DNA of 64,000 bases from Candidatus Buchananbacteria bacterium (GCA_041665005.1 JBAYJR010000001.1:4727-68726); one strand, 5' to 3'. Counted from the first letter of the stretch, positions 3,835-16,436 are shown. Notes: a model not told the origin generated them from the letters alone. A program made the numbers and translations.

Positions 3835-4142
3835 CAATTTTTTTAAAATAATTTACTATTAATTTAGTTAGCCTATTCCAGTTTTGGACAGGCCACAGAT
3901 AGCGTTGCTTTATAGTGACCCACTGTCTCAGCATGGAGTAATCCATGGAACTGGGTTTATTGAGTAAAATGGCATATAAAATAAGTGATCGAAGGCTAGA
4001 GAAATACTATATTGCTAAGCCCGAGATGTCGTATTTAAGGCCGGCCCTCTCACCAACCGTTTAGACGGTTGGTTTTATTTTTCAGAATAAAACACATAAT
4101 TTCTGCCATATTTAGATTTTTTATGGTAAAATAGAGGTAGTT

Positions 4143-7142: not shown

Positions 7143-7181
7143 AAAAACTTTTTAACTTTATACTTTTTACTTGATAACTAA

Positions 7182-7478
7182 ATGTCAATGCACCAGCTAA
7201 AAGATTTATTGCAACGCTCCGTTAATCGAGCGGGAATTTCTAAAGAAGTGGAAGCTTCTTTGATTTGTGAAAAATTTTTGGAAGTGGTTAAAGAAACGTT
7301 TGGCGCGGCTTGGCAAAAAAATTGTAAGCCGCTTTATGTTAAAAATAATACGATTACGGTGGCTTGTTTAAACAACGTCGTGGCCCAAGAAATAAAATTA
7401 CGGGAAAAAGTTTTGCTGGCTAGTTTAGAAAAAATTTTAAAAAAGAAAAGCGTAGAAAGGATTAGGTTTGTAATTTAG
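7182..7478 (+). CDS. DUF721 (DciA-like) small protein
   Basis: About 98 aa with the typical W..NCKPLYVKNNTITVACLNNVVAQEIKL pattern of the DUF721 family. Confidence 0.5.
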   Translation: MSMHQLKDLLQRSVNRAGISKEVEASLICEKFLEVVKETFGAAWQKNCKPLYVKNNTITVACLNNVVAQEIKLREKVLLASLEKILKKKSVERIRFVI

Positions 7479-7493
7479 TAAAGAAGTCAAAAA

Positions 7494-7583
7494 GTGTAAA
7501 GTGTAAAGTGTAAAGTGTAAAGTGTAAAGTGTAAAGTGTAAAGTGTAAAGTGTAAAGTGTAAAGTGTAAAGTGTAAAGTGTAA
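7494..7583. repeat. Perfect heptanucleotide microsatellite (GTGTAAA)x about 12.7
   Basis: Read directly in the sequence, immediately upstream of the four-helix-bundle gene. Confidence 0.95.
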
Positions 7584-7588
7584 AAGTA

Positions 7589-7933
7589 ATGAGGATTGAA
7601 AAATTTGAAGATATTTATGCCTGGCAAAAGGGGAGACAACTAGTAATTGAAGTTTATCGGTTAACGGAGGATAGTCGGGATTATTCTTTTAGAGATCAAT
7701 TAAGGCGGGCCAGTATTTCTGTTATGAACAATATTGCCGAAGGCTTTGAACGAAATACTAATCAGGAATTTAAACATTTTTTGTACATTGCCAAAGGCTC
7801 GTGTGGTGAGGTAAGATCGATGTTGTATTTGACTTTAGAGTTTAATTATTTTACCACTGAGCAGTTTAATAAAGTGTATAGTTTGTCAGTCGAAATTTCT
7901 AGGTTACTGGCTGGTTTAATAAAATCCTTATAG
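7589..7933 (+). CDS. Four-helix-bundle protein of the 23S rRNA intervening-sequence protein family (PF05635/TIGR02436-like)
   Basis: Hallmark block FRDQLRRASISVMNNIAEGFERNTNQEFKHFLYIAKGSCGEVRSMLYL. Confidence 0.85.
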   Translation: MRIEKFEDIYAWQKGRQLVIEVYRLTEDSRDYSFRDQLRRASISVMNNIAEGFERNTNQEFKHFLYIAKGSCGEVRSMLYLTLEFNYFTTEQFNKVYSLSVEISRLLAGLIKSL

Positions 7934-7935
7934 TT

Positions 7936-8004
7936 TTTACGCTCTTTACTTTTTACTTTCTATTTTTAACTATTTAATTTTTAATTTTTAATTTTTAAAT
8001 TTAT
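7936..8004. repeat. AT-rich imperfect tandem repeat (TTTTACT / TTTTTAA units)
   Basis: tttttacgctctttactttttactttctatttttaactatttaatttttaatttttaatttttaaatttat; loosely inverse-like to the upstream GTGTAAA repeat. Confidence 0.7.
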
Positions 8005-8163
8005 ATGCGTGATCATGCTCGGGGCAAGTCAAACAAAAAAGTAGTGGGTTATCGAACGCCGTCTCGCTTTAAAGTGGTGGGTCCGCAGGCCAATCAACGC
8101 GAACAAGGACATTTTAGTCGGCCAACCGAAGCCCAACGGAGCCGCGCTTTTAAGGCTAAATAA
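8005..8163 (+). CDS. Possible small, highly basic protein (52 aa; MRDHARGKSNKKVVGYRTPSRFKVVGPQANQREQGHFSRPTEAQRSRAFKAK)
   Basis: ORF shorter than the track cutoff, translated by hand; start context AAATTTATATG matches many genes in this window; higher GC than the flanks; ends at a shared hairpin terminator at 8162-8195. Confidence 0.3.
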   Translation: MRDHARGKSNKKVVGYRTPSRFKVVGPQANQREQGHFSRPTEAQRSRAFKAK

Positions 8164-8177
8164 AAAAACCGCAAATT

Positions 8178-8855
8178 TTAAAATTTGCGGTTAGTAGCTA
8201 AAGGTTTTTCGGTTAGTTTTTTTCTGTCGCTGATAATTTTATCCAGACCAACACACTGGATATTTTTTTGTTTCAACCAAGCTAGTAGGTCCGGCAAATA
8301 ATTCAAAGTTTCTGTTTGGTCGTGCAGTAAAATTATTGACGGCCAAGTCAGCTCGGCTAACTGGCTAGTAACACAAGCCAGGGCTTTTTCTGGTTTTTGC
8401 CAGTCGCGACTATCTACTTGCCAAGTAACTGTTTGATAGCCTAAGCGGTCAAGGGTTAGTTGGTTAGCCCCGTTATACCGACCAGCGGGCGGCCGGAAAT
8501 AAATTGGTTTGGTGCCAAAATATTCCTGGCAGAGTTTTTCGGTGGTGGTAATTTGACTAACTAATTGTTGGTCCGTTAGTTTGGTAATATTGGGGTGATC
8601 AAAAGTGTGGTTGCCGATCAGACAATTATTAGCTAATGCTTGTTGCAAAGCCGAATAATACTTAGGTAATTGTTCGCCGATAACAAAAAAGGTTACGGAA
8701 CAAGAATTTGCGGCCAAAGTTGAAACAATGGCCTGGGTATTAATTGTTGGCGCGTCATCAATTGTTATGGCTACTTCCGTTGGCCAGGCTAATAAAGCCT
8801 GGTTTGTTAATAAACTTAACCCCAAATAGAGCCCCAGTAGTGTTTTTTTGGTCAT
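8178..8855 (-). CDS. Polysaccharide deacetylase (NodB homology domain), secreted
   Basis: N-terminal signal peptide; TIDDAP and HTFDHP motifs of the NodB/CE4 family. Confidence 0.8.
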   Translation of the reverse strand: MTKKTLLGLYLGLSLLTNQALLAWPTEVAITIDDAPTINTQAIVSTLAANSCSVTFFVIGEQLPKYYSALQQALANNCLIGNHTFDHPNITKLTDQQLVSQITTTEKLCQEYFGTKPIYFRPPAGRYNGANQLTLDRLGYQTVTWQVDSRDWQKPEKALACVTSQLAELTWPSIILLHDQTETLNYLPDLLAWLKQKNIQCVGLDKIISDRKKLTEKPLATNRKF

Positions 8856-8983
8856 GATTTATCCCTCCTAAATAGTATTGAGCAGTTTAGCATATTCGGG
8901 GGTTTTAGCAAGGGGATGGAGTTTAAATATTGGTAATAAATAATTAATTTTGGCTTAAATAAGCCAATATATAAGAATGACAC

Positions 8984-9012
8984 TTGACAAGATTTTGAAT
9001 ATGTGATATACT
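8984..9012 (+). promoter_or_regulatory. Sigma70-like promoter, TTGACA-17-TGaTATACT (extended -10)
   Basis: TTGACA at 8984-8989, 17 nt spacer, TGATATACT at 9004-9012; no CDS follows, only a structured region. Confidence 0.5.
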
Positions 9013-9018
9013 GTAATA

Positions 9019-9225
9019 TTACGATAAGAAATCGTAATTAGCAGTTAAAATTGTTTTTTACAAAATTTAATCAAAATTCTCTGAGGAGAGAGTTTTTATT
9101 GTCATTGCGAGGCTGTTTGCCGTGGCGATCTTTAGCTAGTCTAAAGATTTGTTTCACCCCGTTTAAACGTGGCTTGCAATGACAAAATAAAAAACTCTCC
9201 ATTAGGTGAGTTTTTTTGTTTAATG
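9019..9225 (+). ncRNA. Candidate small RNA: 5' hairpin, then a long near-perfect stem of about 24 bp enclosing about 75 nt with internal hairpins, then a U-tract
   Basis: Hairpin attacgat-aagaa-atcgtaat at 9019-9040; arms GGAGAGAGTTTTTATTGTCATTGC (9076-9099) and GCAATGACAAAATAAAAAACTCTCC (9176-9201); inner hairpin atctttag-ctagt-ctaaagat; T7 tract at 9212-9218. Confidence 0.35.
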
Positions 9226-9440
9226 CTAGCCGCAGTGTTGTTGAGAATCAAGTTCTAAAACAGGGAGAAAAACACATTATGTTATATTAGAGCCCGAAAG
9301 TTTTTCATCAGGTATCCTCAATAACACCGTGGCCAGCCAGATTCATTAAACTGACCATTGGCTAATCGGCGACCAGACCCCAACCTGCCTATTGGTTTCC
9401 ATTTAAAGGCTGGAAAAACTTTGTTTTAAGTTTAAAAACT

Positions 9441-9520
9441 TAAAATGATAGCAGCCTCCTTCCTCTGAGGAGACAAGAATTTTTTCTTGGCTTCTCAGAG
9501 AAGGGACAAAAATTTGTTCC
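9441..9520 (+). repeat. Conserved 5' leader element, copy 1 (homologous to 10824-10895)
   Basis: cagcctccttcctctgaggagacaagaattttttcttggcttctcagagaagggacaaaaa aligns with cagccccccttttccaaggagacaaaaattatcttttggctttttagaaaagggataag; the small hairpin changes in a compensatory way (cttc/gaag versus ctttt/aaaag). Confidence 0.6.
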
Positions 9521-9547
9521 AGATTGATTTTTAGAAAGGAGAAAACT

Positions 9548-9721
9548 ATGTTTTCTTTTTGCTATTACGCGGTGTTAATCACCGCAATGTTCGCTCTTTT
9601 TTTTACGGCAGTATATAAAGGCTTAGTAAAAAAAGATTATCTCAAGTTTGGTATCTGTATGGGGTTGATGAATTTTTTCGGCCTCATCATCATGGTATCA
9701 AAGTGGATGCTAAACATATAG
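9548..9721 (+). CDS. Small hydrophobic membrane peptide (57 aa, two predicted TM helices)
   Basis: RBS AAAGGAG 8 nt before ATG at 9548 (MFSFCYYAVLITAMFALFF ...); the track's TTG start at 9524 is less likely. Confidence 0.5.
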   Translation: MFSFCYYAVLITAMFALFFTAVYKGLVKKDYLKFGICMGLMNFFGLIIMVSKWMLNI

Positions 9722-9735
9722 GTTTCTAAAGGTAT

Positions 9736-9770
9736 CCGAGAGAATACTAAGGTATAAATACCATCTCTCG
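9736..9770 (+). repeat. Conserved two-tier hairpin, copy 1 (CCGAGAGAAT-loop-ATCTCTCG), terminator-like
   Basis: Outer stem CGAGAGA/TCTCTCG, inner stem GGTA/TACC; copies 2 and 3 have the same architecture; followed by a T-rich tract. Confidence 0.6.
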
Positions 9771-10325
9771 TCTTCTTGAGGGTTGCAGAATATTTTCTGA
9801 AATTCTCCAGAAGCTTCCGCAGCCGCGGTTTGCGGACTGAGGAGGTTATTACACTATACATTAAAATTGAGGTTAGTCACTTTTGTGACGCTGACTGACT
9901 GGCGCTTTGTTCTTGGTCTTGGACTAAGGGTTTAGCGTTTAACCAGTTGGTGACTAAACCACCAAGGTCTTTGACCTTAAGAGGTTTGGTCTCGGCCAAG
10001 AGTTTTCTTGGCCGCCTCTACTTAAGGGTTGCAGATGATTATTTGAAACTCTCAAGTAGTTTTTTCACCAAGTAGGGTGGAAAAATAAAAAATAGACCTT
10101 TAAAATTTTGCAACTAAATTTTTGCTTAGGAGGCCAATTTTGACTGACGCTTCATTGGTGTAAAACTAAATGATGTCTAGGTTAAATTGGATTTGCCCAT
10201 AATTATTTGGGTCAGGAAGTTAAGTTTTAGAATAATATTACTATAATATTTTCTAGTTTTACTTAACTACAATCTTAAGCAAAAGTTTAGTTGCAAAAAT
10301 TATTTACTGTGAAGGAGGTGGAGAG

Positions 10326-10785
10326 CTTGAAGCTTGAAACCAGACCAAAACATTTTTTGGATTTTTTGCTATGGCCACTACTGCGAATTTTTTGGGAGCC
10401 ATTATCCCGGAAGAATTCCCACTGGTGGCACTGGTTAGACTATTACGGCAATGTTTTTTTGCCGTTAGAAATAAATCCGGTGCCGTCAAAAGAAATTCGT
10501 TATAGTTTTTGGCAGCGGTTTTACCTGACCAACTTCGGTTGGCGCAAAGTCGTCGTAGTTAAGCCAAAAGGCTACACGGGTGGCTATCGCCTGGGCTTTA
10601 TTTCCCAGACAGAGAAAAAGAAGCAGGTCTGCGCGGTCATTTTGTCAGGTCAGGCCGCGGCCTTAATCGGTGGCAGTAAAGTTCAGTTCTTTGCCATTGA
10701 TTATTATGGTAGGGAGATTCCCTTAGAATTGGTAGAGGTTACTTATAACAAAGCAACACTGCCAAAAGAAATCATTCTAGTTTAG
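10326..10785 (+). CDS. Hypothetical protein (about 153 aa from TTG; the track's ATG at 10291 gives 164 aa)
   Basis: A strong RBS, GAAGGAGGTGG, lies inside the track ORF 6 nt before TTG at 10326, which suggests the real start is the TTG. Confidence 0.4.
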
Positions 10786-10823
10786 TTAATGGGCTGGAAA
10801 TATTATTTAAGTTAAAATTTAAG

Positions 10824-10895
10824 TAATATCAGCCCCCCTTTTCCAAGGAGACAAAAATTATCTTTTGGCTTTTTAGAAAAGGGATAAGTAACATC
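10824..10895 (+). repeat. Conserved 5' leader element, copy 2
   Basis: See copy 1 at 9441-9520. Confidence 0.6.
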
Positions 10896-10924
10896 ATCCC
10901 TAATTGCTCATTGAGAGGTGAAAA

Positions 10925-11176
10925 ATGAAAAAAGAAGTTAAATTTTCATTATGTAAGACTTACTCCTTTTTAGGAGTGGTCTGGATTGGGATTATATTTT
11001 TAATAATCTGGGTGTTCGGTTTTGGGGAAACCAGATTGCCAATCAGTGTATCAACTATTTCCGACGGTACAGTTTTTATTATCTGTACCCTCGGGGCCAT
11101 CTATTTGGCCACTCTTTTTTTAGCAACAGCTTTGTTTTATTGCTTTAATCGCCAATGGCCCTGGCGGAAAAGTTAG
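10925..11176 (+). CDS. Small membrane protein (83 aa, two to three TM helices)
   Basis: RBS GAGAGGTG before the ATG; strongly hydrophobic; followed by conserved hairpin copy 2. Confidence 0.5.
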   Translation: MKKEVKFSLCKTYSFLGVVWIGIIFLIIWVFGFGETRLPISVSTISDGTVFIICTLGAIYLATLFLATALFYCFNRQWPWRKS

Positions 11177-11193
11177 GGTAAACAAAAGAGCAT

Positions 11194-11227
11194 CCGAGAG
11201 AATGCCTAGGTAAAATACCATCTCTCG
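11194..11227 (+). repeat. Conserved two-tier hairpin, copy 2
   Basis: ccgagagaatgcctaggtaaaataccatctctcg followed by ttttt. Confidence 0.6.
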
Positions 11228-11324
11228 TTTTTCCAAATTTATTATTAAAAAATAGTAAATTTAGAAAAATTCAGCACCAAATGGTGATGAATAAGTTATG
11301 CTTAAAAAGGAGATGGTTAATATG

Positions 11325-11549
11325 TTCGGAGGCATTAATGTTTTCCAGTCTAACACCTGTAAGGGTGTTTTGGTAAAATTGGCATATAAGTTAGTTTACA
11401 GAGGGCCATTTGCTGCGATGCCAACTTACCACACCGGAGTGTTTGTTCTTCCGGATGGAATTAATTTGGAACATGTCAATCTTAATCAGCACATACCCCA
11501 CAAGCCATACCAAAAGGTTGAGCTTGTGGAAGTATTAAGAGCTGACTGA
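11325..11549 (+). CDS. Small soluble hypothetical protein (about 75 aa)
   Basis: RBS AAGGAG 9 nt before ATG at 11325 (MFGGINVF ...); the track start at 11298 is less likely; followed by conserved hairpin copy 3. Confidence 0.4.
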   Translation, partial: FGGINVFQSNTCKGVLVKLAYKLVYRGPFAAMPTYHTGVFVLPDGINLEHVNLNQHIPHKPYQKVELVEVLRAD

Positions 11550-11566
11550 TTAGGCTATTAGTGTAT

Positions 11567-11601
11567 CTGAGAGAATACTAAGGTATAAATACCATCTCTC
11601 G
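11567..11601 (+). repeat. Conserved two-tier hairpin, copy 3
   Basis: ctgagagaatactaaggtataaataccatctctcg; the closing base pair changes C-G to U-G. Confidence 0.6.
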
Positions 11602-11690
11602 TTTTCCTAAGTTTTGCAGAATTGAAAAATTTAGGAAACTGGTTAAAGAAATTTGACCAGTAGAAATAAAATTTAAAGGAGGCAAGTAGA

Positions 11691-12068
11691 ATGAATAAAG
11701 AGACGAAAGAGATGTGCAAAACGGTAGTTATTTTTTTGTTACTTGTGGGGGTTGTGGTAGGTATTTTCGACCATTATATGTCGAAAACTTCTCAAGCGAA
11801 AAAAGAAGCCGAACTAAAGGCCCGGTGGGAGCATCAATACAACACAGACATGCAGGCCCGCGACCGGATTAAACCAGTCGCGAATGGCTGGGAGTATAAT
11901 GGTAAAATTGAAAACGATGAACAGCTTTCGGTTGCTTGGTCTGAAATTAACAAACAATTACACCAATCCCGGTTTGGTCTCACTCCAGATGAGGATCCGT
12001 TTGAACTGCGGCTCATTGTCCGCGTTAATCCAGCGGACATCATCTCTCCGGCGCCAAGACGTAAGTAG
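11691..12068 (+). CDS. Hypothetical protein with an N-terminal TM helix
   Basis: RBS AAGGAGG; intrinsic terminator at 12087-12116 (ggggttat-ttaa-tataacccc plus ttctttct). Confidence 0.5.
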   Translation: MNKETKEMCKTVVIFLLLVGVVVGIFDHYMSKTSQAKKEAELKARWEHQYNTDMQARDRIKPVANGWEYNGKIENDEQLSVAWSEINKQLHQSRFGLTPDEDPFELRLIVRVNPADIISPAPRRK

Positions 12069-12303
12069 CTTTGCCGGCTAGTCTTAGGGGTTATTTAATA
12101 TAACCCCTTCTTTCTAAGGGCACCACGATTGGTGATGCTTTGAGAAAGGAAAATATTTAAATAAAATATTTATTTAAGCTAGAGGTTAATCATGCTACGC
12201 GGAAGATTATGATGAAAAACTAAAAAAATAATTTTAAACCGAGTTTTTAGAAATAAAAATACCACTTTAGTTAGTTGTTCACAAGTTAACTCTTGACAAA
12301 GAC

Positions 12304-12332
12304 TTGAGAATAGCTAACTGCGGTGATATACT
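12304..12332 (+). promoter_or_regulatory. Sigma70-like promoter, TTGAGA-17-TGaTATACT; same extended -10 as the promoter at 8984
   Basis: TTGAGA at 12304-12309, extended -10 at 12324-12332; an upstream TTGACA at 12293 would give a 28 nt spacer and is rejected. Confidence 0.45.
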
Positions 12333-12339
12333 ACTGCGG

Positions 12340-12477
12340 TAGAGAAGACGCGATATTATTGGTTGGCTCAAAATCAACCTCGTCACGCCTAGCGTGACAA
12401 AATCTCTCTCCTCGGTAGATTTCTGACTAACCAATTTGCCCTTCTTGAACACCCCCGCTTCGGCTGGGGTGTTTTTA
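12340..12477 (+). ncRNA. Candidate small RNA (about 135 nt) ending in a strong intrinsic terminator
   Basis: Long-range pairing attggttgg / ccaaccaat-like, internal perfect hairpin gtcacgc-cta-gcgtgac, terminator cacccccgc-ttcg-gctggggtg plus TTTTTATT (12450-12477); no ORF; does not match SRP, tmRNA or RNase P motifs that I can recognise. Confidence 0.35.
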
Positions 12478-12539
12478 TTGCGCTAAAATTGTTATAATAA
12501 AGTTGTTTAGACAGTAACTAATTATCTTTAGTAAAATTT

Positions 12540-12920
12540 ATGTCTTTAAAAAGTTTATTAGCTACCTTGTGGGCCTGTACTTTGTTGTTGTGGTTAACTT
12601 GGAGCCTGGTCTTATTTAAGATTGATCCGATAGAAGGCGGATTTTTGGCAATTAGTTTTTTTTATAGCAGTTTAGTTTTAGCTTTATTGGGAACTTTTGT
12701 CCTAGCGGGTTATTATTTGCGACGTTATCGTCAGCCCGAAGCATTGCCTTACCGATTAGTGGTAATTTCTTTACGTCAGGGCTGGTGGTTTAGCTTGGTA
12801 GTGTTAATTACTTTAATTTTGCAAAGTCAAAATTGGTTAACTTGGTGGAATGTCGCGTTATTAATTTTAGCCCTAGGAATTTTGGAATTTTTCTTTATTT
12901 CTTTCAAGGGAGAAAATTAA
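12540..12920 (+). CDS. Hypothetical integral membrane protein (four TM helices)
   Basis: Hydrophobic profile; -10 TATAAT at about 12492. Confidence 0.5.
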   Translation: MSLKSLLATLWACTLLLWLTWSLVLFKIDPIEGGFLAISFFYSSLVLALLGTFVLAGYYLRRYRQPEALPYRLVVISLRQGWWFSLVVLITLILQSQNWLTWWNVALLILALGILEFFFISFKGEN

Positions 12921-13000
12921 ATTTTTGGCTTAATTGCTAAACTTGCTTTTGTTGGCCAAAGATAGTATAATAATCCTATTATTTAGGATTATTTATTTTA

Positions 13001-14065
13001 ATGAAAGATCAATTAACTAAGTTATTAGCTTTAGCCAAACAGGAAATTTCTCAAGCCAGTGATTTGGCGGCGATAACACAATTAGAAATTAAATATTTAG
13101 GACGCGCTCAGGGCGAGTTAACGGCGATTTTGCGTCAATTAAAAACTGTGGCTGAAGCGGATCGGCCAATGGTGGGCCAATTAGCTAATCAGGTTAAACT
13201 AGAATTAGAGCAGGCTTTGAATACTAAAAAACAGGAATTAACCACAGGCGACTTGGCTGGCAATTTAGCTAAAGATTGGTTGGATGTTACTAGTCCGGGT
13301 TTAACTAAGGCAGTTGGTCATTTACACCCCATTACCCAGGCAATTAATGAAATCGTAGAAATTATGGGGCAGTTGGGTTTTTATCGCGTGCGTTATCCCG
13401 AAGTAGAGTGGGATTATTATGCTTTTTCCAGTTTAAATATGCCGGCTGATCATCCCGCTCGCGATGAATGGGAAACTTTTTTTATTGATAAAGAACCGGT
13501 TGGTGAGCTGGGCCAACGGTTATTAACACCCCATACTTCTTCGGGTCAGGTGCGAGAAATGGAAAAGGGTCGGTTGCCAATTAGAATGTTAAATGTTGCT
13601 AAATGCTATCGGCGTCAGATGGATGTTTCGCATTTAGTAATGTTTCATCAATTTGAAGGTTTGTTGGTTGATAAAAATGTCAGCATCGCGGAAATTAAGG
13701 GTACGTTTGATTTTTTTGTCAAAAAGTTTTTTGGTCCCGATCGGACGATTCGTTTACGACCGCATCATTTTCGGTTTACCGAACCAAGTTTTGAAATTGA
13801 TGTATCTTGTGGTTTATGTGGCGGGACTGGCAAATTAAGCCAAGGCGAGGATTGCCGGGTTTGTAAAATGGGTTGGTTGGAATTAGGCGGCGCCGGCATG
13901 GTGCATCCGAATGTTTTAAAAGCGGGGAAAATTGACCCCAAAGTTTATCAGGGCTTTGCTTTTGGTTGGGGAGTGGAACGAACTTATATGATGAAGGCGG
14001 GAGTAAAATTAGATGACATCCGTTTAATTTATCAAAACGATTTAAGATTTTTAGAACAATTTTAA
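13001..14065 (+). CDS. pheS: Phenylalanine--tRNA ligase alpha subunit, with an inserted Cys4 zinc-ribbon
   Basis: Class II motifs FRFTEPSFEID ... GWGVERT; insertion SCGLCGGTGKLSQGEDCRVCKMG where E. coli PheS has a short loop. Confidence 0.95.
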   Translation: MKDQLTKLLALAKQEISQASDLAAITQLEIKYLGRAQGELTAILRQLKTVAEADRPMVGQLANQVKLELEQALNTKKQELTTGDLAGNLAKDWLDVTSPGLTKAVGHLHPITQAINEIVEIMGQLGFYRVRYPEVEWDYYAFSSLNMPADHPARDEWETFFIDKEPVGELGQRLLTPHTSSGQVREMEKGRLPIRMLNVAKCYRRQMDVSHLVMFHQFEGLLVDKNVSIAEIKGTFDFFVKKFFGPDRTIRLRPHHFRFTEPSFEIDVSCGLCGGTGKLSQGEDCRVCKMGWLELGGAGMVHPNVLKAGKIDPKVYQGFAFGWGVERTYMMKAGVKLDDIRLIYQNDLRFLEQF

Positions 14066-14066
14066 T

Positions 14067-16436
14067 ATGCACTTAATGGTTAGTTACAACTGGCTGAAAG
14101 AATATTTACGGACCAAAAAGACGGCCAAAGAATTTGCGGCCGAAATTTCTTTAAAAGGCCCGACGGTTGATCATATTATTGAAACTCAGGCGGGTTTTAG
14201 CGGAGTGGTGGTGGGTAAAATTTTAGAAATTAATCGGCACCCAGATGCGGATAAACTGCAAGTTACTAAAGTAGAAGTTGGCAAGGCGGGAGGAATTTTA
14301 ACCATTGTTTGTGGCGCGGCCAATATTGCGGTTGGTCAAAAGGTGCCCGTGGCGTTAATTGGTGCCATGTTGCCGGGAGAATTTAAGATTGCTAAACGGG
14401 AAATGCGTGGGGTGGTTTCTCAAGGCATGCTTTGTTCGGCTAAAGAATTACAGTTTGGCGAAGATCATTCGGGGATTTTAATTTTAGCAGAAGATTCTAT
14501 CGTGGGTTTACCGTTGGAAAAAGTTTTGCCGGTTAATGATGCGGTGTTGGATTTTGAAATTACCTCTAATCGTCCTGATGCGATGTCGGTAGTTGGTCTA
14601 GCCCGAGAGGCCAGCGCGATTTTAGCAGAAAAATTTTTATATCGTGAACCAAAAGTTGATTTAAAATTAACGACCAAGGCCTTACCCTTGCATTTAGAAA
14701 TTAAAGAACCACAACTTTGTCCACGTTATCAGGCGGTGGTTTTAAGCGGAGTCAGGGTGGCTCCTTCGCCGTTGTGGTTACAACAACGGCTAATTGCTTC
14801 CGGTTTACGGCCGATTAATAATTTAGTGGATATTACTAATTATGTTTTGTTGGAATACGGCCAGCCATTACACGTGTTTGATTATGATAAATTAGTTGGT
14901 CATAAAATTATCGTTAGACAGGCTAAGGCGGGGGAAAAAATCTTAGCGTTAGACGGTAAAACTTACGAGTTAAATGCGCCACAGTTGGTTATTGCGGATG
15001 AACAACAACCCGTGGCAGTGGCCGGGGTAATGGGAGGGGAATTAAGTTCGGCCCAAGTAACCACTAAACAGGTAGTAATTGAAGCGGCTAATTTTTCGGC
15101 AGTGTCGGTTAGGAAAACAGCTCGCGCCTTAAATTTACATTCCGAAGCCTCAGATTTATTTGAAAAAAGCTTAAGTCCTAGTGGCACTTACCCGGCTATT
15201 TTACGGGCAATTGAATTAATAATTAAGCTAGCGGACGGCCAAGTGGCTTCAGAAATTTTTGATCAAGGTAAAAAAATTGCAGCCCCGGAAGTGATTAAAT
15301 TATCCTTAGCGACGGTGGATAAATATTTGGGAGTAAAAATTTCGCCAATCCAAATTAAAAAGATTTTAGTTAGCCTGGGTTTTGTGGTTAGCGGTAATAG
15401 TAAAGAAATTTCGGTTACCGCTCCGGCTTGGCGGGCTGCTGAAATTGAAGGTGAACATGATTTAATTGAAGAAATCGCTCGGATTTATGGTTATCAAAAT
15501 TTGCCGACGCACACCCCTTTGGGCGAAGTACCGGCTTGGCCAGTGGAAATTAGTTTTTATTGGGAAAATATTATTAAAAATTGTTTGGCGGGTTTAGGCT
15601 TTTGGGAAATTTATAGTTATTCTTTGGTTAGTGAAAAAAGTCTTAAATCTTTGGGGTTAGCAACCACTGATTGTTTAGCAGTGGTCAATCCTTTAAGCTC
15701 CGAATATCAATATTTGCGTACTAGTTTACTGCCTAGTTTGTTAAAAGTGGTTGGTGATAATCAAGATAACTTTGCCTCGCAACATCTTTTTGAATTAGCT
15801 AATATTTATCAGCCTCAACTAAATGACTTACCGCAAGAGGAGTTAACTTTAGCCTTAGTGCAAACCGGCTTAGAGGCGGCTAAAACTTTTTTTGATCTAA
15901 AAGGCAGTTTAACGGTCTTGTTTGATAAATTGGGAGTGGTGGCGGAATATAAAAATTTTACGGGCGAAAATTTTTGGCATCCCGCTCGGAGTGCCGAAAT
16001 TTTGGTTGCCGGGGTAGTGGTTGGTAAATTAGGGGAAATTAGGCCCGAAGCTAAAGCTAATTATGATTTAAAACAACCAATCGTGGCGGCTCAGCTTAAC
16101 TTAACGGCGTTAATTAAGCTTGCGCGACTTTATAAAACTTATATTCCTTTGCCAAAATTTCCCGCCATGGTTTTAGATTTATCAGTAGTACTGGCCAAAC
16201 AAGTTAGTTGGCAAGAATTGGCCCAAACAGTCAAAGGAGTTAATAAGTTAATCCAGGCCGTGGAATTATTTGATGTTTATCAGGGGGCTAATATTCCCGA
16301 GGGTAAAAAGAGCGTAGCCTTTAGCGTGACTTATCGTCATCCTGAACGAACCTTAAAATCCGAAGAAGTGGATAATATTCAAACAGAGATAATTAAGTTG
16401 CTGCGGGAAAAGTTTAACGGAGAAATTAGGCAATAA
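14067..16436 (+). CDS. pheT: Phenylalanine--tRNA ligase beta subunit
   Basis: N-terminal tRNA-binding domain, B3/B4 and B5 domains and C-terminal FDX-ACB-like region recognisable; immediately follows pheS. Confidence 0.95.
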   Translation: MHLMVSYNWLKEYLRTKKTAKEFAAEISLKGPTVDHIIETQAGFSGVVVGKILEINRHPDADKLQVTKVEVGKAGGILTIVCGAANIAVGQKVPVALIGAMLPGEFKIAKREMRGVVSQGMLCSAKELQFGEDHSGILILAEDSIVGLPLEKVLPVNDAVLDFEITSNRPDAMSVVGLAREASAILAEKFLYREPKVDLKLTTKALPLHLEIKEPQLCPRYQAVVLSGVRVAPSPLWLQQRLIASGLRPINNLVDITNYVLLEYGQPLHVFDYDKLVGHKIIVRQAKAGEKILALDGKTYELNAPQLVIADEQQPVAVAGVMGGELSSAQVTTKQVVIEAANFSAVSVRKTARALNLHSEASDLFEKSLSPSGTYPAILRAIELIIKLADGQVASEIFDQGKKIAAPEVIKLSLATVDKYLGVKISPIQIKKILVSLGFVVSGNSKEISVTAPAWRAAEIEGEHDLIEEIARIYGYQNLPTHTPLGEVPAWPVEISFYWENIIKNCLAGLGFWEIYSYSLVSEKSLKSLGLATTDCLAVVNPLSSEYQYLRTSLLPSLLKVVGDNQDNFASQHLFELANIYQPQLNDLPQEELTLALVQTGLEAAKTFFDLKGSLTVLFDKLGVVAEYKNFTGENFWHPARSAEILVAGVVVGKLGEIRPEAKANYDLKQPIVAAQLNLTALIKLARLYKTYIPLPKFPAMVLDLSVVLAKQVSWQELAQTVKGVNKLIQAVELFDVYQGANIPEGKKSVAFSVTYRHPERTLKSEEVDNIQTEIIKLLREKFNGEIRQ

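Follow-up and report, generated by a model that had tools for sequence, protein, structure and literature searches.

A 64,000-nucleotide (nt) stretch of DNA from Candidatus Buchananbacteria bacterium (GCA_041665005.1, JBAYJR010000001.1:4727-68726; hereafter the window, numbered from its first letter) carries on its + strand a short unit from which a small RNA (sRNA) of about 140 nt would be transcribed. The predicted ends, 12338 and 12476 or 12477, follow from a promoter, a fold, a terminator and homologues found with covariance models. Downstream on the same strand lie a gene for a membrane protein of 126 amino acids (aa; 12540-12920), which was recognized by tblastn as a conserved partner of pheS, then pheS itself (13001-14065) and pheT (14067-16436). 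A preliminary description of this DNA had proposed a transcript of about 135 nt at this site, close to the length arrived at here, and had read it either as an unclassified sRNA or as a riboregulator of the downstream gene. The RNA is conserved in at least 23 genomes of uncultured, Buchananbacteria-like Patescibacteria.

Promoter, fold and terminator

The predicted promoter (12304-12332, +) matches the consensus at 10 of 12 positions and consists of a −35 element TTGAGA (12304-12309), a 17-nt spacer and an extended −10 element, TG-a-TATACT, exactly as previously described. A consensus TTGACA at 12293-12298, upstream of this −35 element, accounts for the start coordinate of 12293 that the unit had been given. 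Promoter-like matches are frequent in this AT-rich window (20 in a promoter scan, with 16.2 expected by chance), and a single match of this kind is not above chance in AT-rich DNA; it is the recurrence of promoter, fold and terminator in 22 other genomes, each time at this position, that takes the observation beyond chance.

The 140 nt that begin at 12338 fold with a minimum free energy (MFE) of −52.2 kcal/mol, compared with −31.2 ± 3.8 kcal/mol for shuffled sequences (z = −5.6), and none of 200 shuffles folded equally well. The fold of the opposite strand is the weaker one (z = −4.0). In the MFE structure the RNA is a long, imperfect, rod-shaped hairpin (12342-12446) with the terminator directly 3′ of it. 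The rod is closed by a basal stem, P1, in which the purine strand GAGAAG (12342-12347; AGAGAAG in the window, family consensus AGGGAAGG) pairs with CUUCUU (12441-12446; family consensus CCUUCUC), the most conserved segment of the family. Two covarying middle helices, P2 and P3, have their 5′ strands at 12358-12379 and their 3′ strands at 12414-12439, and here lies the long-range pairing of ATTGGTTGG (12358-12366) with the CTAACCAAT region (~12428-12436). The rod ends in a perfect apical hairpin, P4 (GTCACGC-CTA-GCGTGAC, 12382-12398), and on the 3′ side of this tip a 15-nt loop, AAAAUCUCUCUCCUC (12399-12413), is exposed, unpaired, G-free and pyrimidine-rich. The intrinsic terminator (12447-12477) abuts P1 with no spacer and comprises a GC-rich stem, GAACACCCCCGC-TTCG-GCTGGGGTGTT (12447-12474), followed by a U-tract; a terminator scan likewise places hairpins at 12453-12471 followed by a T-run. 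The long-range pairing, the perfect internal hairpin and the TTCG-loop terminator had all been anticipated and are all borne out by the fold.

The unit had also been described as free of open reading frames (ORFs), and on the + strand no ORF of at least 30 aa, the cut-off of the listing, overlaps it. Opposite the RNA, on the − strand, runs a 57-aa ORF with a GTG start (12279-12452). This ORF is very probably spurious, because the homologous sequences show many 1-2-nt insertions and deletions together with compensatory changes of base pairs, and because the conserved G•U pairs would read as A·C on that strand.

Homologues and organismal range

Known RNA families were sought with Rfam 15, at the gathering score for the window and 12 homologous loci and at E ≤ 10 for the locus and one relative, L040. 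At the gathering score no family matched the RNA, the only match in the window being a tRNA-Glu elsewhere, and none matched in the 12 homologous loci. The permissive search returned only sub-threshold noise far below the cut-offs (rnk_pseudo, MicX, istR, GcvB, PyrR and Phe_leader), the weak matches of L040 including PyrR, GcvB and Phe_leader (22.6 bits against a gathering score of 55, E 0.08). The outcome that the locus is a known leader was thus not seen, and the reported absence of signatures of the signal recognition particle (SRP) RNA, transfer-messenger RNA (tmRNA) and RNase P holds even at E ≤ 10. The bacterial small SRP RNA (RF00169), which was considered separately, was rejected for want of a GNRA tetraloop, a helix 8 AGCA motif and an Rfam match.

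Searches of 160 pheS loci with the RNA sequence by nhmmer and blastn recovered the source contig only, so that a structure-aware search was needed. A covariance model built from the single window sequence and its MFE structure (R1) gave full-length matches in 12 distinct loci, all on the pheS strand and all just 5′ of a homologue of the membrane gene. These matches went into a second model (R2), which brought the family to 23 members with E values from 1e-26 to 5e-5; the conservation that the preliminary description had left to be looked for is therefore present, as structural homology in 22 other loci of Patescibacteria. The PheS protein of the window finds its best matches, at no more than 65% identity, in metagenome-assembled genomes of Candidatus Buchananbacteria and other Patescibacteria within genome and metagenome collections. 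Two contigs that encode an identical membrane protein agree with the window at 100% of positions in the 1.5 kb compared. A phage origin of the RNA was rejected, since the conserved pattern found no match in viral contigs. A search of full-text literature yielded no description of such an RNA, nor of any sRNA of Patescibacteria.

Conserved structure and covariation

Sixteen homologues, each folded separately (z between −3 and −8), share one architecture. A basal stem of 8 bp is followed by an asymmetric internal loop, ~20 bp of rod and an apical hairpin whose 3′ loop is unpaired, and the terminator comes last. Covariation was counted on an alignment fitted to the covariance model (A3). There, 86.4% of the cells were paired, compared with 63.7% in shuffles and 35-52% in slid controls, and the covariation score was 0.61, with slid controls at ~0.1. 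Double changes occurred at 43 of 48 pairs, including all 27 pairs of helices 2-4; they were compensatory at each of the 20 pairs of helices 2 and 3, and P4 covaries across the family at all seven of its pairs. Because a model-fitted alignment leans toward its model, the count was repeated on a plain MAFFT alignment with the structure that RNAalifold itself proposed. This gave 88.6% paired cells (39-54% when slid), a covariation score of 0.45 (0.09-0.20 when slid) and compensatory changes at 17 of the 18 pairs of the two middle helices. The RNA structure is thus genuinely conserved, and it is conserved on the + strand, since the U-tract of the terminator and the conserved G•U pairs fit only that strand.

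Sequence conservation is distributed very unevenly over this structure. Mean pairwise identity is 0.80 in the 5′ strand and 0.92 in the 3′ strand of P1 (AGGGAAGG/CCUUCUCU), 0.78 in the terminator arms and ~0.5 elsewhere in the RNA, and the G•U wobble of P1 is retained in 20 of 23 informative rows of A3. The terminator is strong and in the same place in all 23 members, with a 5′ arm that reads AAAUCCCGYC in the family and with 0-2 nt between it and P1. At the other end of the rod, the apical stem covaries freely and is closed by loops as different as CUA, GUU, UUA, UUU and ACG. P4 is missing altogether in L045 (3107-3227) and L108 (2337-2458), both of which end in a 17-nt open loop, and is therefore dispensable. 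In one member, L117 (1209-1396), the 5′ internal loop has accommodated a perfect hairpin of 52 nt, and the rod thereby becomes a three-way junction.

The exposed loop shows constraint of another kind, in composition (G-free) and not in sequence. It is unpaired in the MFE structure of every homologue and contains 3% G over the family, compared with 19% overall, and it is asymmetric throughout, 8-18 nt of single strand on the 3′ side facing 1-4 nt on the 5′ side. In sequence it is unconserved, as the variants UCUCUCUCCUC, AUUUCCAUC, UUCACACUUC, UUUUAAAA and UAUUGAUUUA illustrate, and it is CU-rich in some members. It is also the fastest-changing segment: by a manual count, the close pair L040 and L043 differ by four changes in the ~12 nt of the loop and by ~7 in ~120 nt elsewhere.

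With sequences so diverged, the RNA can also be set against the notion that it is a palindromic repeat resembling a miniature inverted-repeat transposable element (MITE), or a mere elaborate terminator or insulator, and not a functional RNA. Inverted GTCATTGCGAG...CTCGCAATGAC palindromes are common in these genomes and insert beside the RNA gene, and one of them, at 9101-9183 of the window, gives a weak model match (29 bits). Mobile repeats are expected to be multicopy and similar in sequence, whereas the RNA is present once per locus, at a syntenic site and behind a dedicated, conserved promoter, and its sequence has diverged beyond the reach of nhmmer and blastn while its pairs have been kept by compensatory changes. 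This reading is hardly credible. An apparent paralogue at 9088-9219, detected by R2 at the same 29 bits, was likewise rejected, being explained by the GTCATTGCGAG palindromic element and a terminator.

Stand-alone gene or leader of pheST

The position of the RNA invites a reading as a cis-acting 5′ leader or attenuator of membrane-pheS-pheT, which would control read-through as a T-box-like tRNA(Phe) sensor, a Phe leader peptide or a riboswitch. pheST is under leader control in Firmicutes (T-box) and in Enterobacteria (pheM). In 22 of the 23 genomes the RNA directly adjoins the membrane gene upstream, on the same strand; P1 happens to hold GAA paired with UUC; and L040 gives the weak Phe_leader match noted above. 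The RNA further resembles the T-box (RF00230) and the Phe leader (RF01859) in lying upstream of pheS and in combining a hairpin with a following intrinsic terminator.

The arrangement of promoters nevertheless argues against such a leader. Outside the RNA, 41 nt before the ATG of the membrane gene at 12540, stands an extended −10 element, TGTTATAAT (12490-12498, +), the separate −10 that had already been ascribed to the downstream gene. In each of the 22 loci checked, the stretch from the terminator to the membrane-gene ATG contains a TATAAT, which in 18 of them is extended to TGnTATAAT. Moreover, 28 of the 51 unique membrane-pheS loci, about half, have no match to the RNA, a few of these being cut by contig ends; most still carry TATAAT-type promoters in the same place, mostly with the TG extension. 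In many of them, including the closest PheS relatives (L001-L008), the intergenic spacer is only ~50-110 nt. Since this second promoter is found in every locus checked and also at loci that lack the RNA, the downstream genes would be independent of the RNA promoter. The RNA has in turn a conserved promoter of its own: the homologues share TTGnnn-17-(TGn)TAYAAT with the −10 element ending ~6-7 nt before the RNA 5′ end in 22 of 22, and with TGnTAYAAT in 19 of them. One relative, L044, carries the whole unit inverted, with a CTTGACAA element, −35, TGTTATAAT, RNA and terminator running divergently from membrane-pheS.

Nor was the internal machinery of a leader found, in contrast to the T-box and the Phe leader. 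The T-box model (RF00230) gave no match at the gathering score in the window and 12 relatives, or at E ≤ 10 in the locus and L040, and neither a T-box sequence (…GGGUGGNACCGCG) nor a conserved UGGN in the 5′ arm of the terminator occurs in the family. A Stem I specifier was rejected because UUC, present in the loop of 8 of the 13 members of alignment A2 (manual count) and absent from that of the window, has no fixed position, and because the loop lies near the apex of the rod rather than at its base. A leader-peptide attenuator of the pheM type (RF01859) was rejected as well, there being no conserved ORF or start codon and no runs of Phe; by manual reading, the AUG-started peptides of individual members are MLDD, MLAC, MLIL, MPIR and MSSC, or reach 37-53 aa without Phe runs. 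A conserved alternative (antiterminator) pairing was not found: a 5′ GGAUUU that could pair with the AAAUCC of the terminator arm exists in some members only and is absent from the window, L028, L047 and L102. Finally, no complementarity was seen between the loops and the start regions of the membrane gene or of pheS (mean z +0.93 and +0.27).

Regulation of the adjoining operon from a leader is thus improbable. The RNA is better described, as far as promoters and synteny can tell, as a stand-alone gene with its own promoter and terminator, a conclusion that rests on its own promoters, the downstream TATAAT, the inversion in L044 and the 28 of 51 loci without the RNA. Of the two possibilities in the preliminary description, the sRNA is strengthened by this conserved promoter and terminator and by covariation in 23 genomes. 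A riboregulator of the gene downstream is disfavoured by the second promoter, the inverted copy, the loci without a match and the lack of complementarity between loop and neighbouring genes.

The dense promoter layout may extend further downstream. In L040 a terminator-like site follows the membrane gene and a promoter-like site precedes pheS (3920-3976), and the window shows terminator-like and promoter-like sites in the same interval (~12930-12985). Transcription of the membrane gene may thus be separate from that of pheS, in keeping with a very dense layout of promoters in these small genomes.

Proposed function

Our preferred explanation, to which we assign a probability of roughly 0.55, is that the locus is a stand-alone gene of a new structured sRNA family in Candidatus Buchananbacteria and related Patescibacteria, the product of which acts in trans. 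A predicted promoter and a Rho-independent terminator bound a short non-coding unit at positions kept in 22 of 22 homologues, and the secondary structure is conserved with compensatory changes. Stand-alone sRNAs are a familiar kind of bacterial gene; the family and its presence in Patescibacteria appear new.

The sequences themselves show a strong promoter of the sigma-70 type, from which transcription would start 2-4 nt before the invariant purine run AGGGAAGG. This run pairs with the invariant pyrimidine run CCUUCUC[U] ~100 nt downstream to close a rod of ~30 bp whose middle helices covary freely. A G-free, pyrimidine-rich loop lies single-stranded near the tip of the rod, and the GC-rich intrinsic terminator abutting the basal stem would end the transcript. 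The membrane gene and then pheS have promoter matches of their own. In the mechanism that we propose, the product would act in trans as an abundant, stable RNA. Its recognition element would be the invariant basal stem with its G•U pair, stacked on the terminator hairpin and read by a protein or another macromolecular partner, with the rod serving as a spacer and the G-free loop as a single-stranded contact of low specificity. Where helices that covary freely adjoin an invariant one with a fixed wobble, the latter is usually a site that a protein or a tertiary partner reads. Recognition at the base rather than at the loop is suggested by the high identity of P1 and terminator, the retained G•U, the fast-changing loop and the losable P4, and a ribonucleoprotein (RNP) or decoy role is favoured over seed pairing by the invariant, wobble-containing P1 and the fast-evolving loop.

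The main competitor, tentative and on balance unlikely, is a trans-acting antisense sRNA that would pair through the loop AAAAUCUCUCUCCUC with purine-rich ribosome-binding sites and block translation. The C-rich loops of Hfq-independent sRNAs block ribosome-binding sites in this way, and in the present family the loop is always single-stranded and almost free of G. Within the loop of the window, CUCUCUCCUCGG finds an uninterrupted complement of 12 nt, CUGAGGAGAGAG, around 9083-9092 (all 12 nt spanning ~9081-9092), with the G at the end of the loop segment pairing as G•U. By our own reading of the ORFs, this stretch occupies the Shine-Dalgarno position before a 27-aa ORF with a TTG start, shorter than the 30-aa cut-off of the listing, in another promoter-terminator unit, and at −22.9 kcal/mol the duplex is the best non-self site in the 64 kb. 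However, 3 of 20 shuffled seeds match equally well in the window, and the site is accordingly not significant. The loop is moreover unconserved in sequence, with the anti-Shine-Dalgarno core CUCC in only 5 of 23 members; it is the part that evolves fastest between close relatives; and the start regions of the adjacent membrane gene and pheS offer it no complementarity.

Characterized RNAs offer several points of comparison. The Hfq-independent sRNAs RsaE/RoxS of Firmicutes and RepG of Helicobacter are also stand-alone transcripts of ~100-150 nt with their own promoter and terminator, stable hairpins and a G-poor pyrimidine loop. In them, however, the C-rich loop motif is the seed and the most conserved part, whereas here no part is less conserved than the loop, and the basal helix holds the invariant nucleotides; no relationship in sequence or in Rfam connects them. 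In architecture only, the RNA recalls the Y RNAs that bind Ro/Rsr, with paired ends that form a conserved basal stem, here the putative site of protein recognition, a variable upper stem, a pyrimidine-rich internal loop and a 3′ U-tail. It differs from them in having neither an Rfam Y_RNA match nor a tRNA-like module, and membership is not claimed; a scan of 18 neighbouring proteins showed no rsr/TROVE gene. Inspection by eye led us to drop a triple helix in which the CU loop would join the purine strand of P1, the sequences fitting inconsistently and the loop lying ~22 bp away along the rod.

A miniature 6S-like RNA, which would mimic an open promoter and bind the RNA polymerase holoenzyme, or another housekeeping RNA that Rfam misses in the candidate phyla radiation (CPR), was weighed on similar grounds. 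Like 6S RNA (RF00013), the RNA is a rod with an internal single-stranded region, is probably abundant and would be a stand-alone gene; it has a strong promoter and is conserved in small genomes with few regulators, and the full-text literature searched yielded no description of a 6S RNA in Patescibacteria, the single paper that contained both terms being concerned with SRP. 6S RNA, however, is a rod of 160-200 nt with a large two-sided central bubble and long closing and terminal stems. The rod described here spans only ~100 nt, about half that length, its single-stranded region is one-sided and distal, beside the tip rather than at the centre, and what would be its terminal stem, P4, has 7 bp and is dispensable, being missing in L045 and L108. 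No model for 6S, SRP, RNase P, tmRNA or rRNA matched even at E ≤ 10, and this identification is very improbable.

Several observations nevertheless weigh against a stand-alone RNA that acts in trans through its basal stem. The P1 of the window is itself a variant of the family consensus. The terminator stem ATCCCGCC...GGCGGGAT also occurs at unrelated terminators (L030, L042, L057 and L068), and conservation of the terminator may be partly a habit of the lineage and only partly specific to the RNA. Antisense sRNAs directed at Shine-Dalgarno regions typically have loops that are G-free and C/U-rich. The RNA stays linked to membrane-pheST even where PheS is only 55-62% identical to that of the window, and such persistent linkage hints at a local function. 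The DnaA-box-like sequence of the window, discussed below, is a weak match with two mismatches. On the assumption that the RNA is real, we would roughly give the largest share, short of an even chance, to binding of a protein or assembly into an RNP, smaller and equal shares to antisense pairing and to other modes, and the smallest to a local effect in cis.

Upstream elements and a DnaA box

A degenerate DnaA-box-like 9-mer, TTGTTCACA (12275-12283, +), lies 63 nt before the RNA start and differs from the DnaA box TTATCCACA at two positions. Perfect copies of TTATCCACA occur upstream of the RNA in 12 of 22 relatives (L016, L018, L028, L039, L040, L053, L065, L108, L111, L112, L117 and L147), one of them in reverse orientation. 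In 10 of these the box stands 60-64 nt before the RNA start, taken as the start of the covariance-model match; in L018 it is at −52, and in L117 at about −57 when the insertion is allowed for. Perfect boxes number only 27 in the 901 kb of loci as a whole. This placement suggests DnaA-dependent control of the RNA through a box ~61 nt upstream, which in the proposed mechanism would tie expression to DnaA in about half of the lineages. A replication origin in the window was rejected, the GC skew being positive throughout and DnaA boxes being neither clustered nor enriched.

Members without a DnaA box carry the TTGACA-like decamer CTCTTGACAA just 5′ of the −35 element, as the window does (12290-12299, +). 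At 28 nt from the −10 element, the decamer is too far away to serve as its −35. It is found 4-11 nt 5′ of the RNA −35 in L102, L047, L147, L019, L045, L037, L118, L030 and L044. A further copy lies at 1458-1467 of the window on the − strand.

The DnaA box leads to a more specific and rather doubtful version of the trans-acting RNA, in which it would be a housekeeping RNA specific to the CPR lineage, serving as the RNA subunit or decoy of a protein and synthesized under the gate of DnaA. If true, such an RNA would link another core process to replication or to the state of the cell cycle, in organisms without most classical regulators.

Patescibacteria make up a large share of bacterial diversity, are uncultured, and have genomes of ~1 Mb with few recognizable regulators. 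The locus yields a well-supported, alignable RNA family with 23 members and strong covariation, together with a defined promoter architecture, in which about half of the members have a DnaA box at a precise position. The family could enter RNA databases, serve in the annotation of metagenome-assembled genomes and be sought in groundwater metatranscriptomes, and the invariant G•U-containing basal helix with its free-running loop offers a concrete handle for a partner-protein search. Should it prove merely one more regulatory sRNA, the result would be a useful annotation and no surprise.

Neighbouring genes and repeats

Homologues of the membrane protein, ~125 aa long, lie directly 5′ of pheS in the 51 unique loci recovered by tblastn, usually behind a TGnTATAAT promoter of their own. 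The protein matches no Pfam family at the cut-off, bears the NCBI label hypothetical protein, and has its next homologue at 48% identity. Downstream of pheT, the window encodes three tandem paralogues with WG-containing beta repeats (PF14903; 16869-20390).

On the other side of the RNA, a UvrD/PD-(D/E)XK helicase-nuclease gene is separated from membrane-pheS by the region 7143-12300, which has the look of a variable insert. The gene directly preceding membrane-pheS in L007, L011 and L033 may be of the same kind, a guess from its 3′-terminal sequence. The region 7143-12300 includes a gene for a member of the 23S rRNA intervening-sequence protein family (PF05635; 7589-7933) and a set of repeated modules (9436-11622), of 74 nt (9436/10814, 74% identical) and 60 nt (9732/11563, 90% identical) with a shorter third copy at ~11192-11240, interleaved with small ORFs without a Pfam match.

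A second promoter-terminator unit lies at 8981-9219 (+), with TTGACA-17-TGaTATACT at 8985-9013, a terminator at ~9190-9215 and a fold of z −6.4. It holds GAGGAGAGAG (9083-9092), the stretch complementary to the RNA loop for which the match was not statistically significant, and a palindromic GTCATTGCGAGG...GCTTGCAATGAC element (9101-9183) that gives the weak R2 match of 29 bits. Inverted GTCATTGCGAG...CTCGCAATGAC pairs, ~70-130 nt apart and intergenic, occur in 18 of 162 loci (L019, L033, L043, L053, L085, L131, L145, L047 and others), often beside the RNA gene or in the interval from there to the membrane gene, and look like a MITE-like family of palindromic repeats.

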